A DNA stretch of 64,000 nucleotides from Nitrospinaceae bacterium (GCA_046754465.1 JBHHVU010000011.1:1-64000), one strand, 5' to 3'; counted from the stretch's first letter, positions 2,773-61,423 are shown. Notes: generated from the letters alone by a model not told the origin. Numbers and translations: made by a program.

Positions 2773-4100
2773 AAAGAAACCGCGTCATTCTTGGACTGGT
2801 CCTTTTGGGAATCGTTCTTTACCTATTTCTCAGCCGGTCCAACGGTAAGGAAAACCCGCCTTCCGTGGAATATAAAACCGCCGAGGTTCAGAGGGGGGAT
2901 TTGACCATAAAAATATCCGCGACCGGCGTGGTGGTTCCCAACTTCAAGGTAGAGGTCAAATCCAAGGCCAGCGGTGAAGTGTTGAAATTCCCCTACGAGG
3001 AGGGAGACCGCGTCGGCAAGGGCGAACTCCTGATCCAACTCGATAAATCCGACGAAAAACGAAACGTCGCCAAGGCCGGGGCCGACCTGTCCAGCAGCCT
3101 GGCCAAATTAAAAAAAGCCGAAACCGCCCTGATCCTGCAAAAAACGAAATACGAAACCGATTTGCAGCAAACTCGTTCGGCGGTGGAGGCCGCCGAGGCC
3201 AATCTCCAGGAGTCCGCGGACAAACTTAAGCGGCAATCCGACCTCTTCAACCAGAAAATCGTTTCCGAGGAGCTCCTCGACGCCGCCAAAACCGCTGAAA
3301 AGGTGAACCGGGAAAACCTGGTTCAGGCCCGCGTCCAACTCCAGGTCGCCAAAAACGCCGTCCATGATATCACCATGAAGGAAAATGAACTGGAGCTGGT
3401 CAAGGCGGAGGTGACCCGCGCCCGGATCGCCCTGGAAGAGGCGCAGGAACGGTTGGACGAGACGGAAATTTTCGCCCCGATCACCGGGGTCATAATCAAG
3501 AAAATGGTCGAGGAAGGACAAATCATCGCTTCCGGCATATCCAATGTCAGCGGGGGAACCCCCCTGGTGGACGTGGCGGATATGTCCCGGCTGTTTATTA
3601 TCGCCGATGTGGATGAAACGGATATCGGGTCCATTAAAACCAATCAACCCGTCACTATCACCGCGGACGCCTTCCACGGTAAAACCTTCGAGGGAAAGGT
3701 CACCCGGATCGCCCCCCAGGGCGAAGTGGAGAACAGCATCACCATTTTCAAGGTGAAAATCGAAATTGTGGGTCCCGGTAAAAACATCCTGAAACCCATG
3801 ATGACGGCTAATATCGAAATTGTAACCGCCCGCGCCAGGGACGCCCTCTATATCCCTCGGGGCGCGGTGACCAAGGAAGACGGCCAGGTATTCGTGGCCG
3901 TCCTGGAAGACGGCCGACCCAAAAAAGTTCAAATAATACTTGGACTGCAAAATCCGATTTATTCCCAGGTGGTTTCCGGATTGAAATTGGGCCAGAAGGT
4001 TCTTCTCGGGGATTGGAAAAAGCTTCTCGCCGCCGCAGAGAAGCCGAAGGATAAAGGATCGGCCTTGAGAAAAATTCTTTGGATGATCCGGTCGAAATGA
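2769..4100 (+). CDS. MacA-like periplasmic adaptor (membrane fusion protein)
   Basis: N-terminal TM anchor, lipoyl halves (VEVKSKASGEV; IFAPITGVII), long coiled coil, VDETDIGSI and LKPMMTANIEI motifs. Confidence 0.9.
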   Translation: MKRNRVILGLVLLGIVLYLFLSRSNGKENPPSVEYKTAEVQRGDLTIKISATGVVVPNFKVEVKSKASGEVLKFPYEEGDRVGKGELLIQLDKSDEKRNVAKAGADLSSSLAKLKKAETALILQKTKYETDLQQTRSAVEAAEANLQESADKLKRQSDLFNQKIVSEELLDAAKTAEKVNRENLVQARVQLQVAKNAVHDITMKENELELVKAEVTRARIALEEAQERLDETEIFAPITGVIIKKMVEEGQIIASGISNVSGGTPLVDVADMSRLFIIADVDETDIGSIKTNQPVTITADAFHGKTFEGKVTRIAPQGEVENSITIFKVKIEIVGPGKNILKPMMTANIEIVTARARDALYIPRGAVTKEDGQVFVAVLEDGRPKKVQIILGLQNPIYSQVVSGLKLGQKVLLGDWKKLLAAAEKPKDKGSALRKILWMIRSK

Positions 4101-4291
4101 GGGGTTGCCCGGACCGGGGGGTATCCATTTCTTTCTTGCCTTGACGGCGATGCCGTTGCGATAATTAAACCAGAACCTTCCCGGTCCGCCGGATTATTCT
4201 TGAAGCGGGATCCTCTCCTCGATAAAACCGGCTTATCCTGGAGAAATTTCCGGTGGCCAACGATTTAAAGTAAAGTTAAGGAAAACCGACC

Positions 4292-4981
4292 TTGATCGAT
4301 GTTATCAATCTGAGCAAAACCTATCAACTGGGAAAGGTGGAGGTCCCCGCCCTGGTCAATGCTACTTTCAGTTTCAACACCGGGGAATTCGTGGCGATCA
4401 TGGGTCCCTCCGGGAGCGGCAAATCCACCCTGATGAATCTTCTCGGGTGCCTGGACCTCCCCACGTCGGGCATTTACCGGCTGGAAGATTATGACATCCA
4501 ATCCCTGGACTCCAACGATCTCGCCCGGATACGCAACCAGCGGATCGGTTTCGTGTTTCAGAATTTCAATTTACTGCCGCGGGCCAGCGCCCTGGAAAAC
4601 ATCGAACTGCCTCTTCTATACGGGAGGGTCCCCAACTCTGCGCGAATTGCCAGGGACGCGCTGGCCCGGGTCGGGCTGGCGGACCGAACCCACCACAAAC
4701 CCAATGAACTCTCCGGGGGCGAATGCCAGAGGGTGGCCATTGCACGGGCTATCGTAAACAATCCCTCCATCATCCTTGCCGATGAGCCGACGGGCAACCT
4801 CGATTCCAAAAACGGCGAAGAAATCATGAATATTTTTCAACGCTTGAACTCGGACGGCGTCATGGTCATCCTGGTCACCCATGAGCGGGAACTCGCCCAG
4901 AACGCCCGCCGCATCCTTCAGATGAAGGACGGCCGCATCATCAACGATTCAGCCCCGGTGGAAACGGTGCAGCCATGCTGA
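4292..4981 (+). CDS. ABC transporter ATP-binding protein (MacB/LolD family)
   Basis: Walker [23 protein letters not shown] signature, Walker [16 protein letters not shown]. Confidence 0.95.
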
Positions 4982-6183
4982 TCCTGGATTTATTGAAAAT
5001 GGCCCTGCGGAGCCTCGTTGCCAATAAATTGCGCACATTTTTGACGACCCTGGGAATCATCATCGGCGTGGCCTCGGTCATTTCCATGATTTCTATCGGC
5101 GAAGGGGCGAAAAAGCAAACCCTGAGCACCATCTCCAAGTTTGGCACCAACATCATCACCGTCAAACCCGGCCAGAAAAAAACACGCCACGTGCTGACCG
5201 ACCGGGTGAAAACGCTGACCCTGAAAGACGCCGAGGCGATCGAAACCAGCATTCCCCTGATTACCGGGGTGGCGGCGCAGGTTTACCGGTCGGCGCAATT
5301 GAAATATTCCAACAAAAACACCAATACCACCGTCCGCGGGACCGGAAAGGATTACGCCCGCCTGGCGAACTTCGTCATGGATCGGGGGCGATATTTCGGC
5401 GACGCGGAAATCCACGCCGCGAGGCGCATCGCCGTTCTGGGCGCCACGGTCGTCAAAAATTTATTTGGCGGGGAAAACCCTGTCGGGAAAACCATCAAGG
5501 TGGATGGAAACAATTATCTTGTTATCGGCATGACCGAGGCCAAGGGAGCCCTGAGCTGGTACGATCCAGACGACCAGATTTTTATTCCCGTGACGACCGC
5601 CCAGAAACGGCTTTTTGGAATGAATTACGTTCAGTCGATCGATGTCCAGGCGGCGCGCATTGAGGATCTCGAGATCATTAAGAAGGACATTGAGAGGCTG
5701 CTCAGATTGCGGCACAATACCCGTGAAGGCGCGGAAATCGATTTTCACGTGCAAAATTCCGCCCAGTGGCTCAACAGTTGGGGTGACGCGGCAAAGACCT
5801 TCACCTATCTCCTGGGTGGGATCGCCGCTATTTCGCTCATGGTGGGGGGTATCGGAATCATGAACATCATGCTGGTTTCCGTCACCGAGCGCACCCGGGA
5901 AATCGGGATTCGCAAGGCAATCGGCGCCAAAAAAAAGGAAATCATGGAACAGTTTCTCATTGAATCGGTTCTTATCAGCTTCTTGGGCGGCGGCATCGGG
6001 ATTCTCCTCGGCCTGGTTATTTCCAAAACGGTCTCCAGCATGGGGGGCTGGGACACCATTGTGTCGGTGCAATCCATTCTCCTGGCTTTCGGCTTTTCGG
6101 TGGGGATCGGTGTCTTTTTCGGATTTTACCCCGCCAACAAGGCGGCCAATCTTAATCCCATTGACGCATTGCGTTACGAGTGA
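4975..6183 (+). CDS. MacB-family ABC permease (FtsX domain)
   Basis: KLRTFLTTLGIIIGVASV; IAAISLMVGGIGIMNIMLVSVTERTREIGIRKAIGA; C-terminal PANKAANLNPIDALRYE. Confidence 0.95.
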   Translation: MLILDLLKMALRSLVANKLRTFLTTLGIIIGVASVISMISIGEGAKKQTLSTISKFGTNIITVKPGQKKTRHVLTDRVKTLTLKDAEAIETSIPLITGVAAQVYRSAQLKYSNKNTNTTVRGTGKDYARLANFVMDRGRYFGDAEIHAARRIAVLGATVVKNLFGGENPVGKTIKVDGNNYLVIGMTEAKGALSWYDPDDQIFIPVTTAQKRLFGMNYVQSIDVQAARIEDLEIIKKDIERLLRLRHNTREGAEIDFHVQNSAQWLNSWGDAAKTFTYLLGGIAAISLMVGGIGIMNIMLVSVTERTREIGIRKAIGAKKKEIMEQFLIESVLISFLGGGIGILLGLVISKTVSSMGGWDTIVSVQSILLAFGFSVGIGVFFGFYPANKAANLNPIDALRYE

Positions 6184-50967: not shown

Positions 50968-51336
50968 ATGAAAATAAATTTTCGTTCAGTTATATTCCCT
51001 TTGTTTTCTATTCTGCTTACCGCCCTCTTTTTCCACCTCCCCTTGAATGCCGCTGAAGAAATAACCGGTGGAGACATCTGGTTCAAGGACACCAAAAAAT
51101 TCAAACACGTATTGTTCAGTCACGAAAAGCACCTTAAAGCCGGAAACAAGTGCGAAAACTGCCATGAAAAGATTTTTCATAAAAAGAAAGGCTCTAACGA
51201 TAAAGAGAACGCCATCACCATGAAGGTGATTAAGAAGGGGAAATTTTGCGGAACCTGCCATAACGGCGAAACGGCCTTCAACGTCACCGGGCCCTACTGC
51301 AAGAAATGCCATGTGGGAACCCCAAAACAAAAATGA
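50968..51336 (+). CDS. Periplasmic c7-type triheme cytochrome c
   Basis: Signal peptide; VLFSHEKH, CENCH, ITM...GKFCGTCHNG..AF, CKKCH. ATG 50968 follows GGAGG. Confidence 0.88.
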   Translation: MKINFRSVIFPLFSILLTALFFHLPLNAAEEITGGDIWFKDTKKFKHVLFSHEKHLKAGNKCENCHEKIFHKKKGSNDKENAITMKVIKKGKFCGTCHNGETAFNVTGPYCKKCHVGTPKQK

Positions 51337-51340
51337 ATGC

Positions 51341-52117
51341 GTGAAAGAAAATCACCTTCAATTTTCCTTGGCATTCCTATTATTTTCCCTGATCCCATTT
51401 TTTCCCGGTCCTGCTTTGGCCGTAACTGTTTCCGGCCCGCATTTTTCCTATTCCGTGGAAATTCTTCCTTTTGACGCCAAGGAAAAGGGGAAATATCATT
51501 TAAATATCATTCAACCCTATTCCTTCGCCCTTGCAACCATCCAGAGATGCATGACATCCCTGGCTTACCAGAAAAAGATGGTCGCCTGGTCCAAAAAAAA
51601 ACGGGTATTCAGTAATGCCGTGATCCTGCGGATGGCTCCGTTAATCGCCAAGTCGTTCACCCGGGCCGGACCCAATCAACGCGTGGTGTTCAAAATCATC
51701 AAATCCACCGGGAGAACCCTGCTCATGGGAGATACCTTTTTGTCTTCGGAGGGCATGCATTGGCGCATCACCAATGTCAAACACAGCCAGAGACGGGTCG
51801 ATGATTTTAGTATCATGGGCGACTCGTGGAGGCTTGTTCCCCGGAAGGGACAAAAATATAAAACCAAACAGCCTTATAAACATGTGGTCCAGAACGTCAC
51901 CAACTGGATCATTTTCCCCCGTATCCGTCCCGTCGCCTCCAAGGTTCTCGAACCGCCGCCCCCCGTGGCCGCCGCCAAGGAAGAAAAAAAGATTCCCGTC
52001 ACCAGCGAATCCGGCATCAAAGAAAGGCTAAAAATTCTGGAAGACCTGAAACAGGAGGGGTTGATCAACGAGGAGGAATACCAGACCAAGCGGCGGAAAA
52101 TTTTGCGGGATTTATGA
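51341..52117 (+). CDS. Exported protein with C-terminal SHOCT domain
   Basis: Signal peptide ending PALA; C-terminal IKERLKILEDLKQEGLINEEEYQTKRRKILRDL. Confidence 0.8.
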   Translation: MKENHLQFSLAFLLFSLIPFFPGPALAVTVSGPHFSYSVEILPFDAKEKGKYHLNIIQPYSFALATIQRCMTSLAYQKKMVAWSKKKRVFSNAVILRMAPLIAKSFTRAGPNQRVVFKIIKSTGRTLLMGDTFLSSEGMHWRITNVKHSQRRVDDFSIMGDSWRLVPRKGQKYKTKQPYKHVVQNVTNWIIFPRIRPVASKVLEPPPPVAAAKEEKKIPVTSESGIKERLKILEDLKQEGLINEEEYQTKRRKILRDL

Positions 52118-52121
52118 AATC

Positions 52122-52146
52122 CATCCCCCCCGGAACGGGGGGGATG
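52122..52146. terminator. Perfect hairpin between convergent genes (likely bidirectional terminator)
   Basis: CATCCCCCCCG-GAA-CGGGGGGGATG, an 11-bp perfect stem between stops at 52117 and 52161. Confidence 0.7.
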
Positions 52147-52160
52147 TCTGGAGGGTTTGC

Positions 52161-53423
52161 TTAAAACATGGTTCGGATGACGACCGTATATTCGTTCTTT
52201 ACCGGATCATTTCCCCGAACGTCGAACCGCATGGCAAATCCCATCTTGAAATTGTCCCTCAGATAGTACCAGATGGAAGGGGAGACTTTTGTCAAATCGA
52301 GGCTGGCAACATCATCGGAATTGATTTCGTCGTATTGAAGCACGTAATACCAATCGTCCCGTTTATAGGCGCCGGCCAGCGTATAACCATGGAATTCCGC
52401 CTTGGTGGGCCCGGGAAGGGTGGCGATCTTAAAATTATCGTCCCGCCCGAACTGATACACCCCCATCAGCTCTAGATTTGTTTTGAATCGAATATTGGCG
52501 GCAATGGTGTGGCGGAAGAAATCATTTTGTTGTTGCAACGCGGGGGTCCCGGCGGTTCCCAACCCGCCACTCGTATCCTGCCCTTGATAATACATATAGG
52601 AAATGCTGCTTCCTACGAACGGGCTTTTCACCGTATTCGGAACTTCCAGCCGTAGCCCGCCCCATAGATTCTTGTCATTATCCGTATCGGTGGCGTCCTT
52701 TCCGTTATCCACGCCCCCAAACCAGACAAAGGGCCCCTTATAGCCATAGTATAAAATTCCCGGCCTGGAAGAACGGACGTTGGTCGAGTTTTCACCCCCT
52801 CCACCGGAAGATTTGACATTGAGGATATCCGATTTCTGCCAGATCCGTTTTCCATCGGAATAAGAAGAAAATTCCGACGGATTGATCAACCCCACCTGAA
52901 AATTCACAAACGTGTCATAAAGGTTGGTAAAGATCACATGCGCAAACTCGGTTTCAAACTCATCGGTTTTGAACTCCGCTTCCACGAATATGGAAACATT
53001 TTTAAATAGCGATCCCGCCAGAAACAGGGCAAAAAAGTCCGCGTTACCAACATCAAAAGTATCTTCCAAAATCGAGTTTCTGGTTCGAGCGTTCGTTTTG
53101 TATTCCAGCGGAGTCAAACCGACCCTGGCTCCAAACCAATTCCCAACCTGGTCGATCACCAGGTTTTCCGAAATTTCCTCCTTACCGACCGTGTCCCCAT
53201 CCGGTGGTTCTCCCGGCCATTGGAATCCATTCCGAAAGAATAGTTCCCCAAAATAATTCAGCCTGGGAAACGCAGTGTGACAGGTGGTGCAGTCCACTTT
53301 GTATTTTCTGGCAAACTGAGAAAGACCTTCCGCCTTCTGGACAGGCAGCCCCCAGGCAATCACAAGGAGTAAAAGAAACCCCGTGGGAAAACTCGCCAAA
53401 ACACCTTTTCGCCAAATTCTCAT
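52161..53423 (-). CDS. Cyc2/Cyt572-like monoheme cytochrome c-porin fusion
   Basis: Signal peptide (..AEG), then LSQFARKYKVDCTTCHTAFPRLNYFGELFFRNGF, followed by amphipathic beta strands and a C-terminal Phe (EYTVVIRTMF). ATG 53423 with GGAGGG RBS. Confidence 0.8.
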   Translation of the reverse strand: MRIWRKGVLASFPTGFLLLLVIAWGLPVQKAEGLSQFARKYKVDCTTCHTAFPRLNYFGELFFRNGFQWPGEPPDGDTVGKEEISENLVIDQVGNWFGARVGLTPLEYKTNARTRNSILEDTFDVGNADFFALFLAGSLFKNVSIFVEAEFKTDEFETEFAHVIFTNLYDTFVNFQVGLINPSEFSSYSDGKRIWQKSDILNVKSSGGGGENSTNVRSSRPGILYYGYKGPFVWFGGVDNGKDATDTDNDKNLWGGLRLEVPNTVKSPFVGSSISYMYYQGQDTSGGLGTAGTPALQQQNDFFRHTIAANIRFKTNLELMGVYQFGRDDNFKIATLPGPTKAEFHGYTLAGAYKRDDWYYVLQYDEINSDDVASLDLTKVSPSIWYYLRDNFKMGFAMRFDVRGNDPVKNEYTVVIRTMF

Positions 53424-53639
53424 TGTTCTCCCTCCCAAACAATTGTCCGGCATTAGAAAACTGTAAATTGTATGATCGCCTTTAGGGTTGAATATTCCCG
53501 TAAGTAACAAAATAAATTAATTAAATCAACTGGAATCGTCCCAGCCAGGCGAAAAGATCCAATTCATATTCCGGAATATATGGATGAGAATTCATATCAT
53601 GAATATAGAGGGAAACAACAACCAAACGGGAGAATAAGA

Positions 53640-53945
53640 ATGGCCACATTTATAATCATGGGGAAATTCACCCCACAGGGAATCCGGAACGTGAAAGAAA
53701 CCACCACCCGCTCTCATCGATTTCGTGAAATCGCGGAGGGTTACGGGGTTAAGGTGCATGAAATCTTCTGGCTGATGGGAGATTTTGATGTCATCAATAT
53801 CGTAGAGGCGGAGGATGAAAAGTCGGTTTCGGCCCTGCTTCTCGAGCTGGGCGCGTGGGGAAACGTTTCTACCACAACCTACAGGGCATATACGAAAGAG
53901 GAAATGGATGCTATAATCGCCAAAATGGATGGTGTGAAAAAATAA
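53640..53945 (+). CDS. GYD domain protein
   Basis: MATFIIMGKFTPQGIRNVK...FWLMGDFDVINIVEA...GNVSTTTYRA matches the GYD family pattern. Confidence 0.85.
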   Translation: MATFIIMGKFTPQGIRNVKETTTRSHRFREIAEGYGVKVHEIFWLMGDFDVINIVEAEDEKSVSALLLELGAWGNVSTTTYRAYTKEEMDAIIAKMDGVKK

Positions 53946-53987
53946 ATCGATGGTGCGGCTGAACCATCCTATCCGAGTCGCTGACCA

Positions 53988-55181
53988 GTGAATACCCACA
54001 AATACCTCCTTCGATTATTTTTGATCATCCTTTCTGGGGGCGTTTTATTTCTTTCCCACCATGCGGCCTCGGGGGAAGAAAATCCGCCAACGAAAAAAAT
54101 TCCCGATGTTCAATTGAATCCTCTGGGGATGTCCCCCAGCGCGGAATGCGGGAAATGTCATAAGGATATTTATAAAAGTTGGGAAAACTCACTCCACGCC
54201 CGCGCGACGAATAATCCGGTATTCTGGGCCGCCTTCCTGCAGGCCCACTTCAAAAATGTGGAAGTGGCCAATAATTCCTGTCTCCGCTGCCACGCTCCGG
54301 CCGCAAAATTTCTTTACGATTTCAAATTGGAAAAACCCCTCACCCGGGAAGGCATCAATTGCGATTTTTGCCATTCCATTTCCAGCCTGGAACCGGCGGG
54401 TTCGCCCTCGCCGTACCGGCATGAATTCGACCTGGTCAAACAGGGCCCCCTGAAAAACGTCGAATCCCCCGTACACCGCACCCGGTACAACCCCTTGTTC
54501 AAACAATCCCGCTTTTGCGCCGGATGCCATGAACTCACCACCCCTGGTGGAACCCCCTTGATTGAAACCTTCTCCGAATGGCAGCAGGGTCCTTACCCGG
54601 CCAAGGGCATCCATTGCCAGAATTGTCACATGAGAAAAATACCCGGAAAAATTGTCGGAGAGGGAATCAAACAAACACCGGAGACTGAAATCAGCTCTCA
54701 CGATATCGCCGGCGGCCACTCCCTTTCGATGAGGGGGGCATCATTAAAGCTGGAAATCAAGGATATCCGGATCAACAAACAGAAAATGGAGGTCGTCCTC
54801 GATTTGACCAACGTGGGCGCGGGACACAAAATTCCCACGGGACTGCCTTCCAAAAAACTGATGCTCCGCGTGGGGGTGCAAACCACCGATGGGGAAACCA
54901 TCCGTGTTAAAGAAAAGATTTATCATAAGCACATTGTGGACTCCAGGGGCAACCTCATCGACAACGATGCCGACCTCATGCTGGGAAGGGATTTAAAAAT
55001 GATTTTCGACAATCGGATCGGGCCCATGGAAAGACGGCGAGAACATTTCACGTTTTTCGTTCCCCATCCCCAGGACAAACGTGTGTTCGCCAGGGTTTTC
55101 TACATCCACAACCCGCAAATCATTCAGCCCATGCCCATCCAGATCAAGATGCAGGAAGTCACGGCATCGCCAGGACAGTGA
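53988..55181 (+). CDS. Periplasmic pentaheme cytochrome c (cytochrome c554-like N-terminal domain)
   Basis: Signal peptide; CGKCH, CLRCH, CDFCH, CAGCH, CQNCH; C-terminal beta domain with NVGAGHKIPTG. Confidence 0.88.
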   Translation: MNTHKYLLRLFLIILSGGVLFLSHHAASGEENPPTKKIPDVQLNPLGMSPSAECGKCHKDIYKSWENSLHARATNNPVFWAAFLQAHFKNVEVANNSCLRCHAPAAKFLYDFKLEKPLTREGINCDFCHSISSLEPAGSPSPYRHEFDLVKQGPLKNVESPVHRTRYNPLFKQSRFCAGCHELTTPGGTPLIETFSEWQQGPYPAKGIHCQNCHMRKIPGKIVGEGIKQTPETEISSHDIAGGHSLSMRGASLKLEIKDIRINKQKMEVVLDLTNVGAGHKIPTGLPSKKLMLRVGVQTTDGETIRVKEKIYHKHIVDSRGNLIDNDADLMLGRDLKMIFDNRIGPMERRREHFTFFVPHPQDKRVFARVFYIHNPQIIQPMPIQIKMQEVTASPGQ

Positions 55182-55182
55182 T

Positions 55183-55629
55183 ATGACGGACTCCACCCCC
55201 ACAAGCCCCGCCACGGTTTCGGCCAATCGCAGAACCTTTATCAAATGGTCGATATACGGACTGTTAGCGGCATTTTTTGCGGGAGCCGTCAATGTGGTGG
55301 TCCGTTACCTCATACCCCCCCCCCCGAAGAAGAAAACCGGGAAGCTTTCCATCCCCGTCTCACAAATCCCGCTGGGAGGAGCCCAGTTCGTGGACTACCG
55401 GGGTTCCCCGGCGGTCATCATCCACACGGAGAAGGGATACGTCGCCTTTTCCGCGGTTTGCACCCATCTGGGCTGCATCGTCAAATGGATGCGCAATGAA
55501 AAAATATTTTACTGCCCCTGCCACGGAGGAAAATTTGACAACACAGGAAAAGTCCTGGCCGGGCCGCCACCGGAACCTCTACACAAGATCAACATTGAAG
55601 TTCGCGACGATTCGATCAACTTTGTTTGA
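55183..55629 (+). CDS. Rieske 2Fe-2S subunit of a Rieske/cytochrome b complex
   Basis: Tat-like NRRTFIK plus TM, CTHLGC and CPCHGG boxes, GPPPEPL. Confidence 0.93.
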   Translation: MTDSTPTSPATVSANRRTFIKWSIYGLLAAFFAGAVNVVVRYLIPPPPKKKTGKLSIPVSQIPLGGAQFVDYRGSPAVIIHTEKGYVAFSAVCTHLGCIVKWMRNEKIFYCPCHGGKFDNTGKVLAGPPPEPLHKINIEVRDDSINFV

Positions 55630-55635
55630 GGGACC

Positions 55636-56331
55636 ATGAAAAAACTTTTCAAAAAATGGATCGCGGCGGTTTGGGACTGGGTGGATTATCGAACCGGCAT
55701 CAAGGATTTGATCCGCGAGCAACTGACGGAATACCGGGTTCCCCCCCGGTTGAACAAATGGTATTCCCTGGGAGGCCTGGCCCTTTTTGTCTTTGGAATA
55801 CAATTGGTCACGGGGGTATTGCTGCTCGTCTATTATGTGCCGTCCACCGAAGAGGCGTTTGACAGTGTCCAGCGCATCATGCTTGAAATTCCCTATGGCT
55901 GGCTCATGCGCACCTCCCATGCCGCTGGAGCCCATTTGATGGTCATGGTGGTCTTCCTGCACATGGTGAGCGTCATATTCATTGGGTCCTATAAAAAGCC
56001 GAGGGAGCTCACCTGGCTGACTGGCTGCGGCCTGGTTTTCATGACGCTGGGAATCTGCTTCACCGGTTACCTGCTGCCCTGGAGCCAGCTCTCCTACTGG
56101 GCAACGACGGTGGCGACCAATATTCCCGCGCCCATTCCCGTTATCGGACCCATGATTGTCCGGTTGATTCGCGGCGGGGATCAGATCAATCCCGACACCC
56201 TGAACCGTTTTTTTGCCCTGCACGTCGTCGTCATTCCCGCGGTCATGTTGGCCCTGGTGGGAATTCATCTGTACCTGATCCGCGTGCTGGGAATTTCGGA
56301 CCCGCATCAGGCGGATGAGGAAACTGAGTAA
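55636..56331 (+). CDS. Cytochrome b, N-terminal (b6-like) subunit
   Basis: YSLGG..QLVTG, RTSH...FLHM, PRELTWLTG, TGYLLPWSQLSYWA, RFFALH...IH heme-b ligands. Confidence 0.95.
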   Translation: MKKLFKKWIAAVWDWVDYRTGIKDLIREQLTEYRVPPRLNKWYSLGGLALFVFGIQLVTGVLLLVYYVPSTEEAFDSVQRIMLEIPYGWLMRTSHAAGAHLMVMVVFLHMVSVIFIGSYKKPRELTWLTGCGLVFMTLGICFTGYLLPWSQLSYWATTVATNIPAPIPVIGPMIVRLIRGGDQINPDTLNRFFALHVVVIPAVMLALVGIHLYLIRVLGISDPHQADEETE

Positions 56332-56333
56332 TC

Positions 56334-56741
56334 ATGTACAAAAAACCAAAATACTTGAAGGGAACCCGGTTTTTCCCAAGCTTTATCATGGAAGACGTTC
56401 TGGTCATCTTCATCTTCCTGGCGATTTTCTTCACAGGGGTCTTCTTCTTTCCGGAATGGATCATTTCCGGGGAGTCGGAAATGCCGGCGGACCCCTTCAA
56501 TACGCCGGAGCACATCAAACCCGAATGGTATTTTCTGGCGTCCTATCAGTTTTTGAAAATCATTCCATCGGAATTCGCTGCGCTTATTTTAATGACCCTG
56601 GGAATCATGGGATTTATTTTCTTACCCTTCCTGGACCGGTCGGAGGAAAAAAGAATCCAAAAGCGGCCTCTTTTTTTATTACTGGTAATCACTTTCATCA
56701 TTTTCTTCGTGGGGTTGACCCTATGGGGCGCTTTTTCCTGA
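56334..56741 (+). CDS. Cytochrome b C-terminal subunit (subunit IV-like)
   Basis: PADPFNTPEHIKPEWYF (PEWY Qo motif), LPFLDRS, three TM helices. Confidence 0.93.
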   Translation: MYKKPKYLKGTRFFPSFIMEDVLVIFIFLAIFFTGVFFFPEWIISGESEMPADPFNTPEHIKPEWYFLASYQFLKIIPSEFAALILMTLGIMGFIFLPFLDRSEEKRIQKRPLFLLLVITFIIFFVGLTLWGAFS

Positions 56742-57589
56742 GAGGGACCATCGTCGGGCAATCCACCGGCCACCGATTTTATGCCTGGCGGCGGAAAGCC
56801 TTGTGGGTTGTGGTCTTGACCTTGTTCCCGCCCGCACCGGCGCAACCGGCGTTTCATCCGGAATCTCCCAACTCCTGTATTGAATGCCATCGCTCCCTTG
56901 AAGATAAGCGTTTGTCCGAGCCGGTGATCCAATGGTCAAAAAGTATCCATAATGAAGTCGGCAACACCTGCGACGGGTGCCATGGGGGCGATCCTCAAGA
57001 CAAATCAACCGGCGCCATGTCTAAAAAAAACGGCTTTTACCCGGCACCGGAAGACGAACAAGTCGCCTCGTTTTGCGGCAAATGCCATGCGGAAATATCA
57101 AAGGATTACCTGGAAAGCACTCATGGAATGATGAGTAACCCCAACTGCGTCACTTGCCATGGGTCTCATTCCATCCGGAGAATCAGCATCAATATTATCA
57201 AGCCGGACAAATGCACCGAGTGCCATGATTATGAAAATCCGGAAAAACTGCTGAAAATCCTGCTATCCCTTCACAAGGAGTTTCACGAGGCGGAAGCTCA
57301 GTTAAAATTGATCCGTGGGGTTCCCATCCACCCCCTGAAAAAAGAACTGGAAAAAACCTGGAAAGACCTCCGCCAGGTCCGGATGGTCAGCCACACGTTC
57401 GACCTACCCACCATCGAAGTGGAAGCGAAAAAGGTTCACATGTCCATGCTGGAAACCAGGAACGAGATTGACCGGTTAACACAATTGACGCAGGCCAGAA
57501 AACGATGGGGATTCCTGGTGGTTTTCTTATTCATGGGGTTGGCCCTCTTGACCTACTGGTACAACAAAAAGCCGGATCCAGGGGAATGA
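56723..57589 (+). CDS. Membrane-anchored pentaheme cytochrome c
   Basis: Signal-like RRKALWVVVLTLF; CIECH, CDGCH, CGKCH, CVTCH, CTECH; coiled coil and C-terminal TM. Start uncertain. Confidence 0.85.
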   Translation: MGRFFLRGTIVGQSTGHRFYAWRRKALWVVVLTLFPPAPAQPAFHPESPNSCIECHRSLEDKRLSEPVIQWSKSIHNEVGNTCDGCHGGDPQDKSTGAMSKKNGFYPAPEDEQVASFCGKCHAEISKDYLESTHGMMSNPNCVTCHGSHSIRRISINIIKPDKCTECHDYENPEKLLKILLSLHKEFHEAEAQLKLIRGVPIHPLKKELEKTWKDLRQVRMVSHTFDLPTIEVEAKKVHMSMLETRNEIDRLTQLTQARKRWGFLVVFLFMGLALLTYWYNKKPDPGE

Positions 57590-57684
57590 TATTCCCGAAA
57601 CACATTGAAATATAGAAATATATCTTAACAAAAGCGTGAAAAATCATATATTTGAATCAGACTACCCCTTGTTATCGAAGAGAA

Positions 57685-57975
57685 ATGATAAAACGAATAC
57701 GCAGATGTAAACTCGCTGTGATTTTGGTATTTGCGTTGGGATTTTTCTCCTTATCCGTCTGTCATGCGGGAGCGCAAACGCAATCCATGGATCCCCAGGG
57801 TTGCACCATGCTGAATCTTTGTGGCGCCTGTCCAATCGCCGATGTGAGCGATTCCCCGGAATTGAAGTATTTCTCCCATCCGTCGCCTACGTTTGCGGAT
57901 ACCCCCCTCCCGTGGCCCGGTCTTGTCAAGGACCGGCTGTACCATCCTCCTCGAAAACACGTATTTTCGTCCTAG
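57685..57975 (+). CDS. Small exported CxxC protein with C-terminal HPP motif (DUF2946/CruR-like leader ORF)
   Basis: MIKRIRRCKLAVILVFALGFFSLSVCHA...LCGACP...DRLYHPPRKHVFSS, directly upstream of cusC. Confidence 0.65.
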   Translation: MIKRIRRCKLAVILVFALGFFSLSVCHAGAQTQSMDPQGCTMLNLCGACPIADVSDSPELKYFSHPSPTFADTPLPWPGLVKDRLYHPPRKHVFSS

Positions 57976-58100: not shown

Positions 58101-59375
58101 ATGCATAAAATCATATCCCTTATAATAATTGCAGTATTTCTCGGTGGGGCCTCTCCCGTCCAGGAAACGGGGGACAGTCCGTTCCGGAAGAAGATGAACG
58201 AATTCATTTCCATAGCCCTGGAAAATAATCCCCAACTCAAGGAGTCTCAAAACCGGATCAAGCAATTTAAGGAAGTTCCCTCCCAGGCCGGTTCCCTGGA
58301 CGATCCCATTTTGCGGTTTGAATTGAAAAACCTCCCGTCCGACTCCTTTGCATTCGACCAGGACCCCGGCACGCAAAAAAAAATATCCGTGTCACAAAAA
58401 TTCCCTTATCCCGGAAAACTGATGTTGCGCTCCGAAATAGCGGGAAAAAATGTGGCCATCGCCGAGCACAGTTTGGAGGACTTGAAACTGAAAATCATTA
58501 AGGATGTCAAAACATCCTATTTTGAACTGAGTTTCATTCTGGCCTCCATTCAAATCACCCGGAAAAATAAGGACCTGCTGGAACAGTTTGTCACCATCGC
58601 CGAGACCAAATACTCCGTGGGCAAGGGCATTCAACAGGATGTATTGAAAGCCCAGGTGGAGCTGTCCAAAATAATCGATGAATTGATTCGGCTCAACGAA
58701 CTCAAGGAATTGGAACAGGCCCGACTGAACACCCTCATGGATCGGTTACCCCAGGAACCTCTGAGCATTCCGGACGGAATCACCCATACCCCCTTCACCT
58801 ACAATCTGGTGGAATTACAAAAACTATCGGAAGAATTCCGTCCTACCCTGAAGGAAATTCGTTCCCTGAAAGAGCGGTTTCAAGTATCCAAGCGGCTGGC
58901 GGAAAAGGAATACTATCCCGATTTCAACGTAGGTTTCAAATACGGGCAGCGTGAGAACGGACTTGTCCAGGACCGGCCCGACTTCGTTTCCGCCTACGTG
59001 GCCATCAACATCCCCATCTGGTACAAAACCAAGCAAAGACGCAAGGTGGCCGAAGAGTCTTTCAAAATCATGAAGATTCAGGAAGCTTACAATGATGCCC
59101 GAAATCAAATTTTCCTGGGTATCAAGGAATTATTCGAGGAGGAAATCCGGGAGGAACAAACAATCGAACTCATAGGAAAAGCCATTATTCCACAAGCACG
59201 GCAATCCCTGGAATCTGCCGTGGCGGGTTATGGCGTGGACAAGGTGGATTTCCTGACCCTGCTGGACAATCAGATAACCCTGTTCAATTGGGAAATCAAG
59301 TACCAACGGGAGCTGGCATCTTATGAAAAAACACTGGCGAATCTGGAAAGCGTCGTCGGCAAAAGCTTGTTTTAA
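58101..59375 (+). CDS. cusC: TolC-family outer membrane factor of a heavy-metal efflux system
   Basis: ALENNPQL, SQKFPYPGK, ETKYSVGKGIQQDVLKAQVE, YYPDFNVG, GYGVDKVDFLTLLD; first gene before cusB/cusA. Confidence 0.85.
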   Translation: MHKIISLIIIAVFLGGASPVQETGDSPFRKKMNEFISIALENNPQLKESQNRIKQFKEVPSQAGSLDDPILRFELKNLPSDSFAFDQDPGTQKKISVSQKFPYPGKLMLRSEIAGKNVAIAEHSLEDLKLKIIKDVKTSYFELSFILASIQITRKNKDLLEQFVTIAETKYSVGKGIQQDVLKAQVELSKIIDELIRLNELKELEQARLNTLMDRLPQEPLSIPDGITHTPFTYNLVELQKLSEEFRPTLKEIRSLKERFQVSKRLAEKEYYPDFNVGFKYGQRENGLVQDRPDFVSAYVAINIPIWYKTKQRRKVAEESFKIMKIQEAYNDARNQIFLGIKELFEEEIREEQTIELIGKAIIPQARQSLESAVAGYGVDKVDFLTLLDNQITLFNWEIKYQRELASYEKTLANLESVVGKSLF

Positions 59376-59452
59376 GTTTTTACAGGCACTCAAACACCCA
59401 ACCTTTTTTCGGGGGGAAGCGTTCCCGAAAGCCCGAAAAGCATAGGTGCACC

Positions 59453-61423
59453 ATGACCGATATCGACGATTTACTTAAGGAAAAAATAACCGAAAACTCC
59501 TCTTCCCGGGAAGAAGAGCAAGCAGAGGTGTTATATCCTTCCGAACCAGAACTGGAATCCAGCAATTTCGAGGAAGAGGTCCATCAATCCCGGTTCCGGC
59601 TTTTTTTGACAAGAACCGGAAATTCCATGGCCAGGCTCTGGAAGGGAATAAAGTCCCGCTTCAAGAATGAGATTCCGGAGGAGGATTATCTCTCTGATTC
59701 CTCCGACGCCGATATTCTTTTCCCCAAGGAAGAAGATGAGAAGGAGGCTGCCTCCAAAAAGAAGAAAAGGGGTCACGGTTTTTTAAAAATAATTGGCTGG
59801 CCCGTTTTGCTCATTATAGTGTTCCTGCTGGGATTTTTCACCCGCCCGGACATGATGGATAACACCCTGAAAAACGTGGAAAAGTGGAGCGCATTGGTTT
59901 TCAAGGAAATGGGTCCCATCCAGGAAAAAGTCTCCGAAAAGGTCACGGAAATCATCGATAAGAACGTGCCCGTTAAAGGGCAGGCCCCCGCGGGTTCCGG
60001 AGACGGGGAAAAACCCCAAAGAAAAATCAAATATTGGAAAGCGCCCATGACGCCGGGATTCATCTCTGACAAACCCGGCAAATCCCCCATGGGCATGGAC
60101 CTGGTTCCTGTCTACGAAGAAGAGGAAGCGGTCAAACCAAAGCGGAAAATCAAATATTGGAAAGCGCCCATGACGCCGGGATTCATCTCTGACAAACCCG
60201 GAAAGTCCCCCATGGGCATGGACCTGATTCCCGTCTATGAAGATGAAGCCAACACCGGTCCGGGGATCCGGATCAATCCCAACATGGTCCAGAACATCGG
60301 AATAAAAACGGCAAAAGTAAAAAGGACCATCCTCACACGGGAGGTGCGGACGGTGGGGCATCTCACTTATGATGAAAGGTTGGTCACCCACATCCACACC
60401 AAGTATGAGGGATGGGCGGAAAAATTGTATGTCGACTTCAGGGGACAGGAGGTAAAAAAGGACGACCTTCTGCTTGAAATTTACAGTCCGGAACTGGTCT
60501 CCACCCAGGAAGAACTGCTTCTGGCCCTGAAATACAATCAATCCCTCAAAAACAGCTCGTTCAAGGAGATTTCCGGGGGGGCCAAAAGGTTGCTGGAGTC
60601 CACCCGGCGTAGACTGGAGTTGTTTGATGTCCCGGAACATCAAATCGAAGCCTTGATCCGGGACAAAAAGATCACCAAAACCATGCACATCCATTCGCCA
60701 TTCCGGGGTTTCGTGACCGAGAAACACGTTTTGCAGGGGATGTATGTCAAACCGGGCATGAACCTTTATACCATTGCCGACCTGTCCAACATCTGGGTTT
60801 TGGCCGACGTTTATGAATATGAATTGCCCTGGGTCAAACTCGGCCAGCCCGCCCAGATGACCCTGTCCTACTTCCCCGGAAAAAAGTTCAAGGGAAAGGT
60901 GACCTATGTCGACCCCTTCCTGGACCCCAAGACCCGGACCGTCAAGGTGAGAATGGAATTCGACAACCCCGAATGGAAACTCAAACCAGACATGTATGCC
61001 AACGTCAATCTGGAATCCATCATAGCCAAGCGGGCGGTCGCGGTTCCGGAAGATGCAATCATTCGCGCGGGAGAGAAAGACCTGGTCATCATAAGAAATT
61101 CGTCGGGTGGATTTGAACCTCGTCGAATTATTCTGGGAGCGCAGGCCAAGGGATATTACCAAGTCCTCAAGGGCCTCCGCGGCGGCGAGGAAGTGGTCAC
61201 CTCCTCAAACTTCCTGATCGATTCCGAAAGCAATCTCGGGGTGGCACTCAGTAAAATGCAGTCAACCAAACCCCCATTGGGGAAAAACCCCCCGAAGAAA
61301 ACCCCGTCACTTAAAAAGAAGATGACCATGAAAAAAGAGGAAGGGGGAAAAATGGATCTGTCCAAAATGAAGGGAAAACAAAATCAACCCACCGGCATGG
61401 TAAAAATAAAGCCGGAACCATGA
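59453..61423 (+). CDS. cusB: CusB-like periplasmic adaptor with two Met-rich metal-binding repeats
   Basis: Two copies of YWKAPMTPGFISDKPGKSPMGMDL[V/I]PVY; GWAEKLYV, YSPELVSTQEE, IADLSNIWV.ADVYE, LKPDMYA, NFLIDSESNL. Confidence 0.9.
   Translation: MTDIDDLLKEKITENSSSREEEQAEVLYPSEPELESSNFEEEVHQSRFRLFLTRTGNSMARLWKGIKSRFKNEIPEEDYLSDSSDADILFPKEEDEKEAASKKKKRGHGFLKIIGWPVLLIIVFLLGFFTRPDMMDNTLKNVEKWSALVFKEMGPIQEKVSEKVTEIIDKNVPVKGQAPAGSGDGEKPQRKIKYWKAPMTPGFISDKPGKSPMGMDLVPVYEEEEAVKPKRKIKYWKAPMTPGFISDKPGKSPMGMDLIPVYEDEANTGPGIRINPNMVQNIGIKTAKVKRTILTREVRTVGHLTYDERLVTHIHTKYEGWAEKLYVDFRGQEVKKDDLLLEIYSPELVSTQEELLLALKYNQSLKNSSFKEISGGAKRLLESTRRRLELFDVPEHQIEALIRDKKITKTMHIHSPFRGFVTEKHVLQGMYVKPGMNLYTIADLSNIWVLADVYEYELPWVKLGQPAQMTLSYFPGKKFKGKVTYVDPFLDPKTRTVKVRMEFDNPEWKLKPDMYANVNLESIIAKRAVAVPEDAIIRAGEKDLVIIRNSSGGFEPRRIILGAQAKGYYQVLKGLRGGEEVVTSSNFLIDSESNLGVALSKMQSTKPPLGKNPPKKTPSLKKKMTMKKEEGGKMDLSKMKGKQNQPTGMVKIKPEP
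60023..60243 (+). repeat. Intragenic tandem duplication (two ~98-nt copies, 123-nt period)
   Basis: 60023-60120 and 60146-60243 are near-identical (about five mismatches by eye, mostly synonymous); each encodes one CusB Met motif. Confidence 0.92.

Follow-up and report, generated by a model that had tools for sequence, protein, structure and literature searches.

Does a 6.6 kb block of cytochrome genes in a Nitrospinaceae genome encode an electron path between the cell exterior and the respiratory chain and, if so, in which direction would the electrons flow? The block lies at positions 50968 to 57589 of a 64,000-nucleotide stretch of DNA (hereafter the window; JBHHVU010000011.1:1-64000), which is contig C11 of a Nitrospinaceae bacterium genome (GCA_046754465.1, here G000; 3.3 Mb, 115 contigs, estimated 97% complete). 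Its nine open frames comprise a trio of triheme cytochrome, SHOCT-domain protein and haem-porin genes, the latter resembling Cyc2, and an operon that encodes a Rieske/cytochrome b complex with two pentahaem cytochromes. Our results indicate that the block probably forms such a path, running in one direction or the other. A functional electron conduit is likely because the trio is conserved, the linkage to Rieske/cytochrome b genes is recurrent and the operon is similar to the Geobacter ext cluster. The transfer of electrons from protein to protein, the substrate and the direction of flow are what we infer from the sequences.

A first-pass annotation of the same DNA had proposed a conduit from the outer membrane to the quinone pool. 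The genes that it named and its count of 14 CxxCH motifs (3+1+5+5) are confirmed by open frames, family matches and a scripted count. Its interpretation is supported in part: gene content, predicted fold, the trio and the recurrent linkage favor it, although the linkage is not universal. Only 32 of the 13,210 open reading frames (ORFs) of at least 70 amino acids in the genome carry two or more CxxCH motifs; since three of these fall inside the 6.6 kb, such a density of haem genes is not attributable to chance.

The identity of the haem-porin is central to the question. Its gene (52161-53423, minus strand) encodes 420 amino acids without any match in Pfam or NCBIfam, and the sole CxxCH, CTTCH at residues 45-49, follows a hydrophobic N-terminus consistent with a signal peptide. 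According to the published definition, Cyc2 proteins have a single CXXCH, an upstream [A]XPXFAR[Q/K][T/Y] motif, a downstream PXL in which Pro is the fourth residue after CXXCH, and at least 365 amino acids with a 16-strand porin; the published Cyc2 tree was screened on PXFAR[Q/K][T/Y] (Keffer 2021, PMC8406198). The window protein reads GLSQFARKY-KVD-CTTCH-TAF-PRL. Like the Cyc2/Cyt572 proteins of A. ferrooxidans, Mariprofundus (Cyc2PV-1), Leptospirillum and Ghiorsea, it combines a signal peptide, an N-terminal CxxCH, FAR[K][Y] three residues ahead of it, the PxL Pro in fourth position behind it, a length above 365 amino acids and an OprO/OprP-like porin with 16 predicted strands. It differs from them in having Ser for Pro in the upstream motif (the family consensus is A-x-S-Q-W/F-A/S-R-K-Y) and in its partners, a c7 triheme and a SHOCT protein as opposed to rusticyanin, Cyc1 or Cyt579. 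It also forms a subfamily distinct from the commoner Cyc2-like paralogue of Nitrospinaceae.

The three-residue spacing between FARKY and CxxCH is the same as in four proteins with the full motif (ALPSFARQT-GWS-CATCH-TSF-PQL). These come from genomes of an order containing an Acidiferrobacterales metagenome-assembled genome (MAG) and were used only as motif carriers; a rus-type operon was sought around them, and in place of cox genes a dihaem cytochrome and Nuo/Mrp-like genes were found as neighbors. In profile alignments with hhalign, the porin family matched these four proteins with a probability of 96.6 (E 5.5e-10, 121 columns) and the Nitrospinaceae Cyc2-like paralogue family at E 1.3e-41 over 369 columns, the paralogue on contig C13 of the same genome being 23% identical to the window porin. 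Since it shares the architecture, most of the motif and these profile matches, yet has Ser where the motif requires Pro, the window porin is best read as a divergent sister subfamily of Cyc2 that stands outside the strict published motif. The label Cyc2-like, given by the first-pass annotation, is thus sound as to architecture and most of the motif and does not hold under the strict definition. In this regard, HMM surveys have already reported Cyc2-like genes in Nitrospinaceae/Nitrospinota MAGs (PMC11995701, PMC9769843, PMC6850669).

The predicted structure of the porin is in line with this assignment. The AlphaFold2 model built from the family alignment (pLDDT 91.7, pTM 0.87) shows 16 long strands between residues 97 and 419; the haem motif is surrounded by short helices, and the C-terminus, RTMF, is of the outer-membrane type. 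In Foldseek the model matched 16-strand porins, led by OmpU (E 6.5e-13) and followed by PorB, Omp32 and OmpF, with OprP/OprO also listed. Neighbors in the ESM Atlas belong to clusters named 'porin' or 'cytochrome c', in one of which 20% of the members carry PF07396 (Porin_O_P). A word-indexed search retrieved 146 relatives, all annotated as hypothetical and none with Pfam domains; the closest are from Nitrospinaceae or Nitrospinae MAGs, and the sources that carry a name include Nitrospinota, Aminicenantes, Thermodesulfobacteriota, Elusimicrobia, Chlamydiae and Bacteroidetes. With HMMER, a full search of the family profile returned 3,421, 1,101 and 90 clusters at 50% identity for E<=1e-3, E<=1e-10 and E<=1e-30, respectively, and ten distant matches to the profile carried only the name 'hypothetical protein', with no known iron oxidizer among them. 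In 99 aligned sequences, down to 35% identity, C45, C48, H49, P53 and R54 are invariant and L55 nearly so. A conduit of the MtrAB/PioAB type was considered as well and rejected, for the barrel counts 16 strands instead of 26, and the window has no decahaem gene next to it.

As a separate observation, the C13 paralogue (C13:21044-24709, also seen as L050:2045-5169) is a second Cyc2-like gene of 408 amino acids reading ALPLFARRY...CTLCH, with four ORFs for monohaem cytochromes on its flanks. Of these, three were scanned (L050:2045-2545, 3953-4570 and 4519-5169), and their best NCBIfam name was Leptospirillum cytochrome 579, at 42-75 bits against a cut-off of 280. The layout recalls the Cyt572/Cyt579 pair, and members of the paralogue family are common across Nitrospinaceae, Nitrohelix and Nitromaritima records among them.

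The two other members of the trio lie next to the porin gene on the plus strand. The triheme cytochrome (50968-51336; 122 amino acids, signal peptide, predicted to be periplasmic) has its three motifs, CENCH, CGTCH and CKKCH, within about 70 residues and scores above the cut-offs of the c7 domain models (PF14522, 58.1 bits against 24.8; TIGR04257, 72.2 bits against 40), which places it in the c7 type. The gene that follows (51311-52117) encodes an exported protein of 268 amino acids with a C-terminal SHOCT domain (PF09851, 27.2 bits). It has only 13 relatives at E<=1e-3, and in Nitrospinota loci its gene invariably separates the triheme gene from the porin gene. Its AlphaFold2 model (pLDDT 73.4) matched no fold in the PDB at E<=0.001, and a complex prediction run without controls for porin residues 31-420 with SHOCT protein residues 38-268 gave ipSAE values of 0.00 and 0.02.

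On the other side of a 156-base spacer (53424-53579), from which the porin gene diverges, lies the Rieske operon on the plus strand, with intergenic gaps of -19 to 42 bases. Its first gene encodes a GYD-domain protein (53580-53945; PF08734, 94.3 bits), which, like the SHOCT gene, is a further member of the block beyond the cytochrome, porin and Rieske/b genes. Then come a pentahaem cytochrome c of 397 amino acids with an N-terminal hydrophobic segment and five CxxCH motifs (53988-55181; PF13435, 44.1 bits), a Rieske 2Fe-2S subunit with the Tat motif RRTFIK (55183-55629; PF00355, 50.2 bits), a cytochrome b6-type subunit of 231 amino acids (55636-56331; PF00033, 197 bits), subunit IV, the C-terminal half of cytochrome b (56334-56741; PF00032, 84.6 bits), and a second pentahaem cytochrome c of 288 amino acids (56723-57589; five CxxCH, PF14522 at 30 bits) with a C-terminal hydrophobic membrane helix within ...WGFLVVFLFMGLALLTYWY.... 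For this last gene the end given by the first-pass annotation stands; the most likely start is the ATG at 56723, which overlaps the end of the subunit IV gene by 19 bases, and not 56315. A scan for consensus promoters and terminators remained at chance level (9 against 8.3 expected and 13 against 11.8 expected), and the promoter scan listed no site in the 156-base spacer.

The operon has the hallmarks of a Rieske/cytochrome b complex. The Rieske ligands are found as CTHLGC...CPCH at residues 93-114, and the cytochrome b6 subunit, encoded apart from subunit IV, carries the His pairs 95/109 and 196/211. In place of a monohaem c1 or f subunit or a dihaem c subunit, two pentahaems flank the core, and the complex is therefore a known variant class, not a canonical complex. 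In high-potential Rieske proteins a Ser and a Tyr raise the potential. Because both are missing from the window motif CPCHGGKF, the centre may be of the low-potential, menaquinol type. As for its family, the first pentahaem scores 94.3 bits against the ExtKL model NF040886 (cut-off 250), and cytochrome b6 scores 228.6 bits against PRK03735 and 224.8 bits against the ExtP model NF040969 (cut-off 290), all of them below cut-off; the operon is thus ext-like without its proteins belonging to the ExtKL or ExtP equivalogs.

Three systems help to place this arrangement. The operons of Nitrospina gracilis, which belongs to the same family as the window organism, and of Kuenenia and Methylomirabilis are described as encoding Rieske, split b and octahaem proteins (Lucker 2013, PMC3578206); they share with the window the split b6/subunit IV, the Rieske protein and a multihaem cytochrome replacing c1 or f, but have one octahaem where the window has two pentahaems and a GYD gene. 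The Geobacter sulfurreducens cluster extHIJKLMNOPQS, implicated in selenite/tellurite reduction, is reported to contain a porin weakly similar to phosphate porins, the pentahaem ExtKL, the Rieske protein ExtO, the cytochrome b ExtP, the small membrane subunit ExtQ and further c cytochromes (PMC5877670). ExtKL and ExtP are the best or near-best NCBIfam names of the window pentahaem and cytochrome b; on the other hand, the window porin carries its own haem and matches no NCBIfam model, and the window lacks the rhodanese ExtH, ExtJ and the 10- and 12-haem ExtM/N. Finally, the uphill branch of A. ferrooxidans (Cyc2, rusticyanin, CycA1 and the bc1 complex PetI) follows the same logic, from an outer-membrane Cyc2 through a periplasmic carrier to a Rieske/b complex and towards quinone (PMC5566968, PMC10654088). 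It differs in having cyc2 in the rus operon with cox genes, a separate pet operon, a canonical bc1 complex and an acidic pH, and in using copper and dihaem c4 proteins as carriers, unlike the window.

The genome holds three cytochrome b loci. Contig C15 carries a Rieske gene, an ExtP-like b (268.5 bits), an ExtQ-like protein and an eight-haem class-I-type cytochrome (102.7 bits with the ExtS model, cut-off 100), and contig C32 has an unsplit cytochrome b on its own. The cytochrome b of the window shares 40% identity with that of C15. Since the C15 operon fits the N. gracilis type, the window operon represents an extra complex.

If the porin and the Rieske/b complex work together, their genes might be expected to stay together in relatives. 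At E<=1e-5, the porin protein finds matches in 47 of 120 Nitrospinota genomes; besides G000, only eight of the 120 carry this subfamily, namely G008, G009, G010, G059 and G017 (53-59% identity), G108 and G109 (41-42%) and, as a fragment, G058. The triheme, SHOCT and porin genes are contiguous in all six order-level relatives and also in metagenome locus L061. Four of the five relatives with that side on the contig (G008, G009, G059 and G017) have a Rieske/cytochrome b operon next to the porin gene, the Rieske side of G058 being off the contig end. G008 and G009 share the divergent order of the window, with an 11-haem gene added upstream of the porin gene; in G059 and G017, Rieske, fused cytochrome b, octahaem and porin genes follow each other on one strand. 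A GYD gene precedes the pentahaem gene in all loci of the window's order (the window, L007/L008, L056 and L073). The 11-haem cytochrome, which is N-terminally anchored, is encoded directly upstream of the porin and on the same strand at L007:10478-11431, L008:2609-3562 and L073:8821-9714, and is missing from the window.

The linkage extends beyond the phylum. Among 22 loci from a scan of species-representative genomes, four of them shared with the Nitrospinota set, five have Rieske and cytochrome b genes within 10 kb. They include L022 from a Zixibacteria MAG, L030 from an unclassified bacterium, where the genes adjoin directly on the same strand, and L033 from an Elusimicrobia MAG. Of the 53 loci from a metagenome scan, many of which are short, eight have a cytochrome b gene, including near-copies of the window order (L056, L073) and a new arrangement (L075). 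Pooling yielded 84 loci in 58 clusters at 90% identity, 11 of them with cytochrome b within 5 kb of the porin. Only 24 clusters are informative, with at least 5 kb on both flanks (taking the longest flank among members). In seven of these the Rieske/cytochrome b operon lies within 5 kb, in five gene orders, and the seven come from Nitrospinota, Zixibacteria, Elusimicrobia and an unclassified bacterium. By arithmetic estimate, from three loci in 3.3 Mb, a random gene would fall within 5 kb of cytochrome b in about 1% of cases. The porin shares its strand with the Rieske/b genes in four of the five orders, and 13 of the 24 clusters have a cytochrome with at least three haems within 2 kb. The synteny to which the first-pass annotation had tied its proposal is thus kept in most order-level relatives that are informative on this side and in a minority of the clusters overall.

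On a tree of 45 family rows and four outgroup rows, from which fragments below 380 amino acids and redundant cluster members were left out, the Rieske/b link requires five changes, at least three of them forced by well-supported branches; 7 of 500 label shuffles gave a count as low. The porins of L011 and L073 are sisters (support 100), yet the Rieske/b modules that lie between their genes and sirC differ, a module swap in place that kept the adjacency. The module at L011:10382-13381 consists of a fused b and an octahaem on the porin strand, and that at L073:4763-8697 is of the window type, with split b and two pentahaems, and divergent. Cytochrome b copies across the gene orders are only 37-46% identical to one another (35-41% to the C15 copy), and the Rieske/b partners are therefore not one co-inherited lineage.

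These findings allow us to propose a model for the block. The single c haem would sit at the periplasmic mouth of the 16-strand outer-membrane porin and exchange electrons with a small soluble species entering the pore, most likely Fe2+. The c7 triheme would carry the electrons across the periplasm, possibly assisted by the lineage-specific SHOCT protein, and the pentahaem subunits of the Rieske/cytochrome b6/subunit IV complex would link the path to the (mena)quinone pool, which this complex would feed, or reverse-feed, for reductant in an autotrophic lineage. The lineage of N. gracilis is described as autotrophic and aerobic and as needing reverse electron flow (Lucker 2013, PMC3578206). In line with this notion, all Cyc2-type proteins with functional data in the literature that our search covered are reported to be Fe(II) oxidases, on the strength of direct assays for Cyc2PV-1 and the Ghiorsea Cyc2 (PMC8406198, PMC13692758), of cited work for A. 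ferrooxidans Cyc2 and of a listed role for Leptospirillum Cyt572/Cyc572 (PMC8406198, PMC10654088). Moreover, with one haem in a pore of 16 strands, only dissolved ions are predicted to come within reach (Keffer 2021, PMC8406198).

Electron uptake from Fe(II) is to our mind the best explanation of the block, although we hold it tentatively and would not call it probable. Several points weigh against it, or against the path as such. Quinol oxidation is the normal activity of Rieske/b complexes, and cytochromes of the c7 and ExtKL types typically belong to metal reducers; both facts point to outward flow. The upstream motif of the porin departs from that of Cyc2, with Gly for the first Ala in addition to Ser for Pro and only FARKY fitting, and the alignment with the full-motif proteins reaches no further than the cytochrome domain and the first strands. 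A search of the genome for a haem-copper oxidase, with a query uncalibrated on relatives, found none. As to the linkage, there is no Rieske operon on the side where polA/alaS-type genes lie next to the trio of G010, the G108 and G109 homologues keep CxxCH and lie near ABC permeases with no cytochromes nearby, no Rieske/cytochrome b genes occur within 5 kb in 17 of the 24 informative clusters, and no multihaem cytochrome occurs within 2 kb in 11 of them. Some of these points would suit the same wiring with outward flow, in which the Rieske/b complex would oxidize menaquinol and pass the electrons through the pentahaems, the triheme and the haem-porin to a soluble acceptor, such as chelated Fe(III) or Mn species, or selenite or tellurite as proposed for Geobacter ext. 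We consider this unlikely. It agrees with the usual direction of Rieske/b complexes, with ExtKL (94.3 bits) and ExtP (224.8 bits) as the best NCBIfam names, with the match of the triheme to the Geobacter-type TIGR04257, with the comparable porin, pentahaem, Rieske and cytochrome b of the ext cluster (PMC5877670), with the many multihaem ORFs of the genome and with the fact that neither an NxrA-like protein nor a haem-copper oxidase was found in it. However, the ext-family scores all fall under their curated cut-offs, a haem in a narrow 16-strand pore would not reach solid oxides according to the Cyc2 work (Keffer 2021, PMC8406198), the lineage is otherwise described as autotrophic and aerobic (PMC3578206), and the literature that our search covered contained no Cyc2-type reductase.

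Two further explanations dispense with a path between the membranes. The two units may be mere neighbors, adjacency reflecting a respiratory gene neighborhood, with the Rieske/b decahaem as a second complex III variant that works with periplasmic carriers at large and the trio as a separate module for other partners, e.g., bd-like oxidases. The existence of three cytochrome b loci, of which the C15 copy is the N. gracilis-type complex, would fit such a separation, as would the divergent, not co-transcribed units of the window, the trio without Rieske operon in G010, the porin gene of L021, accompanied by a triheme and a tetrahaem alone, and the unlinked majority of informative clusters (17 of 24). 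Against this stand the seven linked clusters of 24 where about 1% would be expected by chance, and a link kept through five gene orders, four of them same-strand, and through a module swap; we therefore regard uncoupled units as rather unlikely. Alternatively, the 420-amino-acid protein could be mainly a solute porin of the OprO/OprP kind, with the haem serving sensing, protection or gating and the cytochrome neighbors being incidental. This would account for a fold that matches general and phosphate-selective porins, for the ESM Atlas cluster with PF07396 in 20% of its members, for homologues beside ABC permeases and for cytochrome-free loci, whose neighbors share no common theme. In G108 and G109 (L012:3352-8424, L013:201-4260) the class-level homologue (38% identity) follows two PF00528 permeases and a porin-sized ORF of 411 amino acids, a locus that by eye looks like a phosphate-uptake operon. 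Nevertheless, the CxxCH, PxL and flanking motif are invariant or nearly so across the 99 sequences down to 35% identity, a cytochrome of at least three haems lies within 2 kb in 13 of the 24 informative clusters, and the characterized relatives are described as redox enzymes (PMC8406198, PMC13692758), which makes a role chiefly in solute uptake very unlikely.

The genome background bears on the Fe(II) reading as well. That the other genes give no sign of metal respiration, as the first-pass annotation had remarked, is true of the window and not of the rest of the genome, where decahaem, 11-haem and 27-haem ORFs and a second Cyc2-like gene occur. Elsewhere in the genome, four ORFs with ten CxxCH motifs, one with 11 and a 27-haem/9-haem pair were found. 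The 27-haem and 9-haem ORFs are at C53:18353-21390, and a 10-haem and an 11-haem ORF, ExtM-like below cut-off, are at C31:13809-19540. At C71:12836-13681 a 10/11-haem cytochrome of 281-306 amino acids adjoins a 728-amino-acid protein at the contig end, and the two may be a porin-cytochrome pair.

Scans with PF00384 and TIGR03479 found no NxrA-like protein in this MAG. Its PF00384 proteins are two NuoG-like and one FdhF/YdeP-type only, and the maximum for TIGR03479 was 91.9 bits on a protein and 42.9 bits in a six-frame genome scan; the same model detects NxrA-sized proteins (about 1,150-1,200 amino acids, 185-233 bits) in 25 of 69 other genomes of the family. The organism may thus be a non-nitrite-oxidizing member of Nitrospinaceae, or the assembly may have a gap. 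Since G017, a carrier of the porin/Rieske cluster, has an NxrA-sized protein, the two are not mutually exclusive. The genome encodes two bd-like oxidase homologues and a NiFe hydrogenase. As no haem-copper oxidase was found, the acceptor of an Fe(II) chain would be one of the two bd-like oxidases or something else. A PF00115 match on contig C58 (30.8 bits) was rejected as an oxidase, being a hybrid-cluster-associated protein.

As to the habitat, the stretch was found in four DNA sequencing runs, all from one study and labelled hydrothermal vent metagenome, which are possibly the source sample and serve only as context in favor of uptake; no RNA runs were among the sequencing runs listed as holding it. 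Downstream of the operon, a TolC-like gene is followed by a CusB-like gene (58101-61423). The CusB-like protein contains an exact 28-residue repeat at residues 190 and 231 that matches two heavy-metal-binding HMBD domains. Between the operon and these efflux genes lies an ORF for an exported protein of 107 amino acids with several Cys (57652-57975), which matches no family in Pfam or NCBIfam.

Models of neutrophilic iron oxidation put Cyc2 at the cell surface and leave the route to the quinone pool open. An ACIII or bc complex has been proposed to convey Cyc2 electrons to this pool, on the basis of co-occurrence only, and a bc1 complex has been suggested where ACIII is missing (He et al. 2017, PMC5566968). 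Within the literature that our search reached, no description of a Cyc2-like gene in one cluster with a multihaem Rieske/cytochrome b operon came to light. The combination of a Cyc2-like porin, a periplasmic carrier and a specific Rieske/b link, which persists across several gene orders and phyla, narrows the question of the quinone route to four or five testable proteins, and it suggests that part of a family known solely for marine nitrite oxidation has a metal-linked electron path. In its fullest form, the block would be an Fe(II):menaquinone oxidoreductase across both membranes and the core of an undescribed iron lithotrophy in vent Nitrospinaceae. We think it unlikely that all of this holds; if it does, the pairing of Cyc2-like and Rieske/b genes in several phyla would mark the inner-membrane entry point of Cyc2 electrons.

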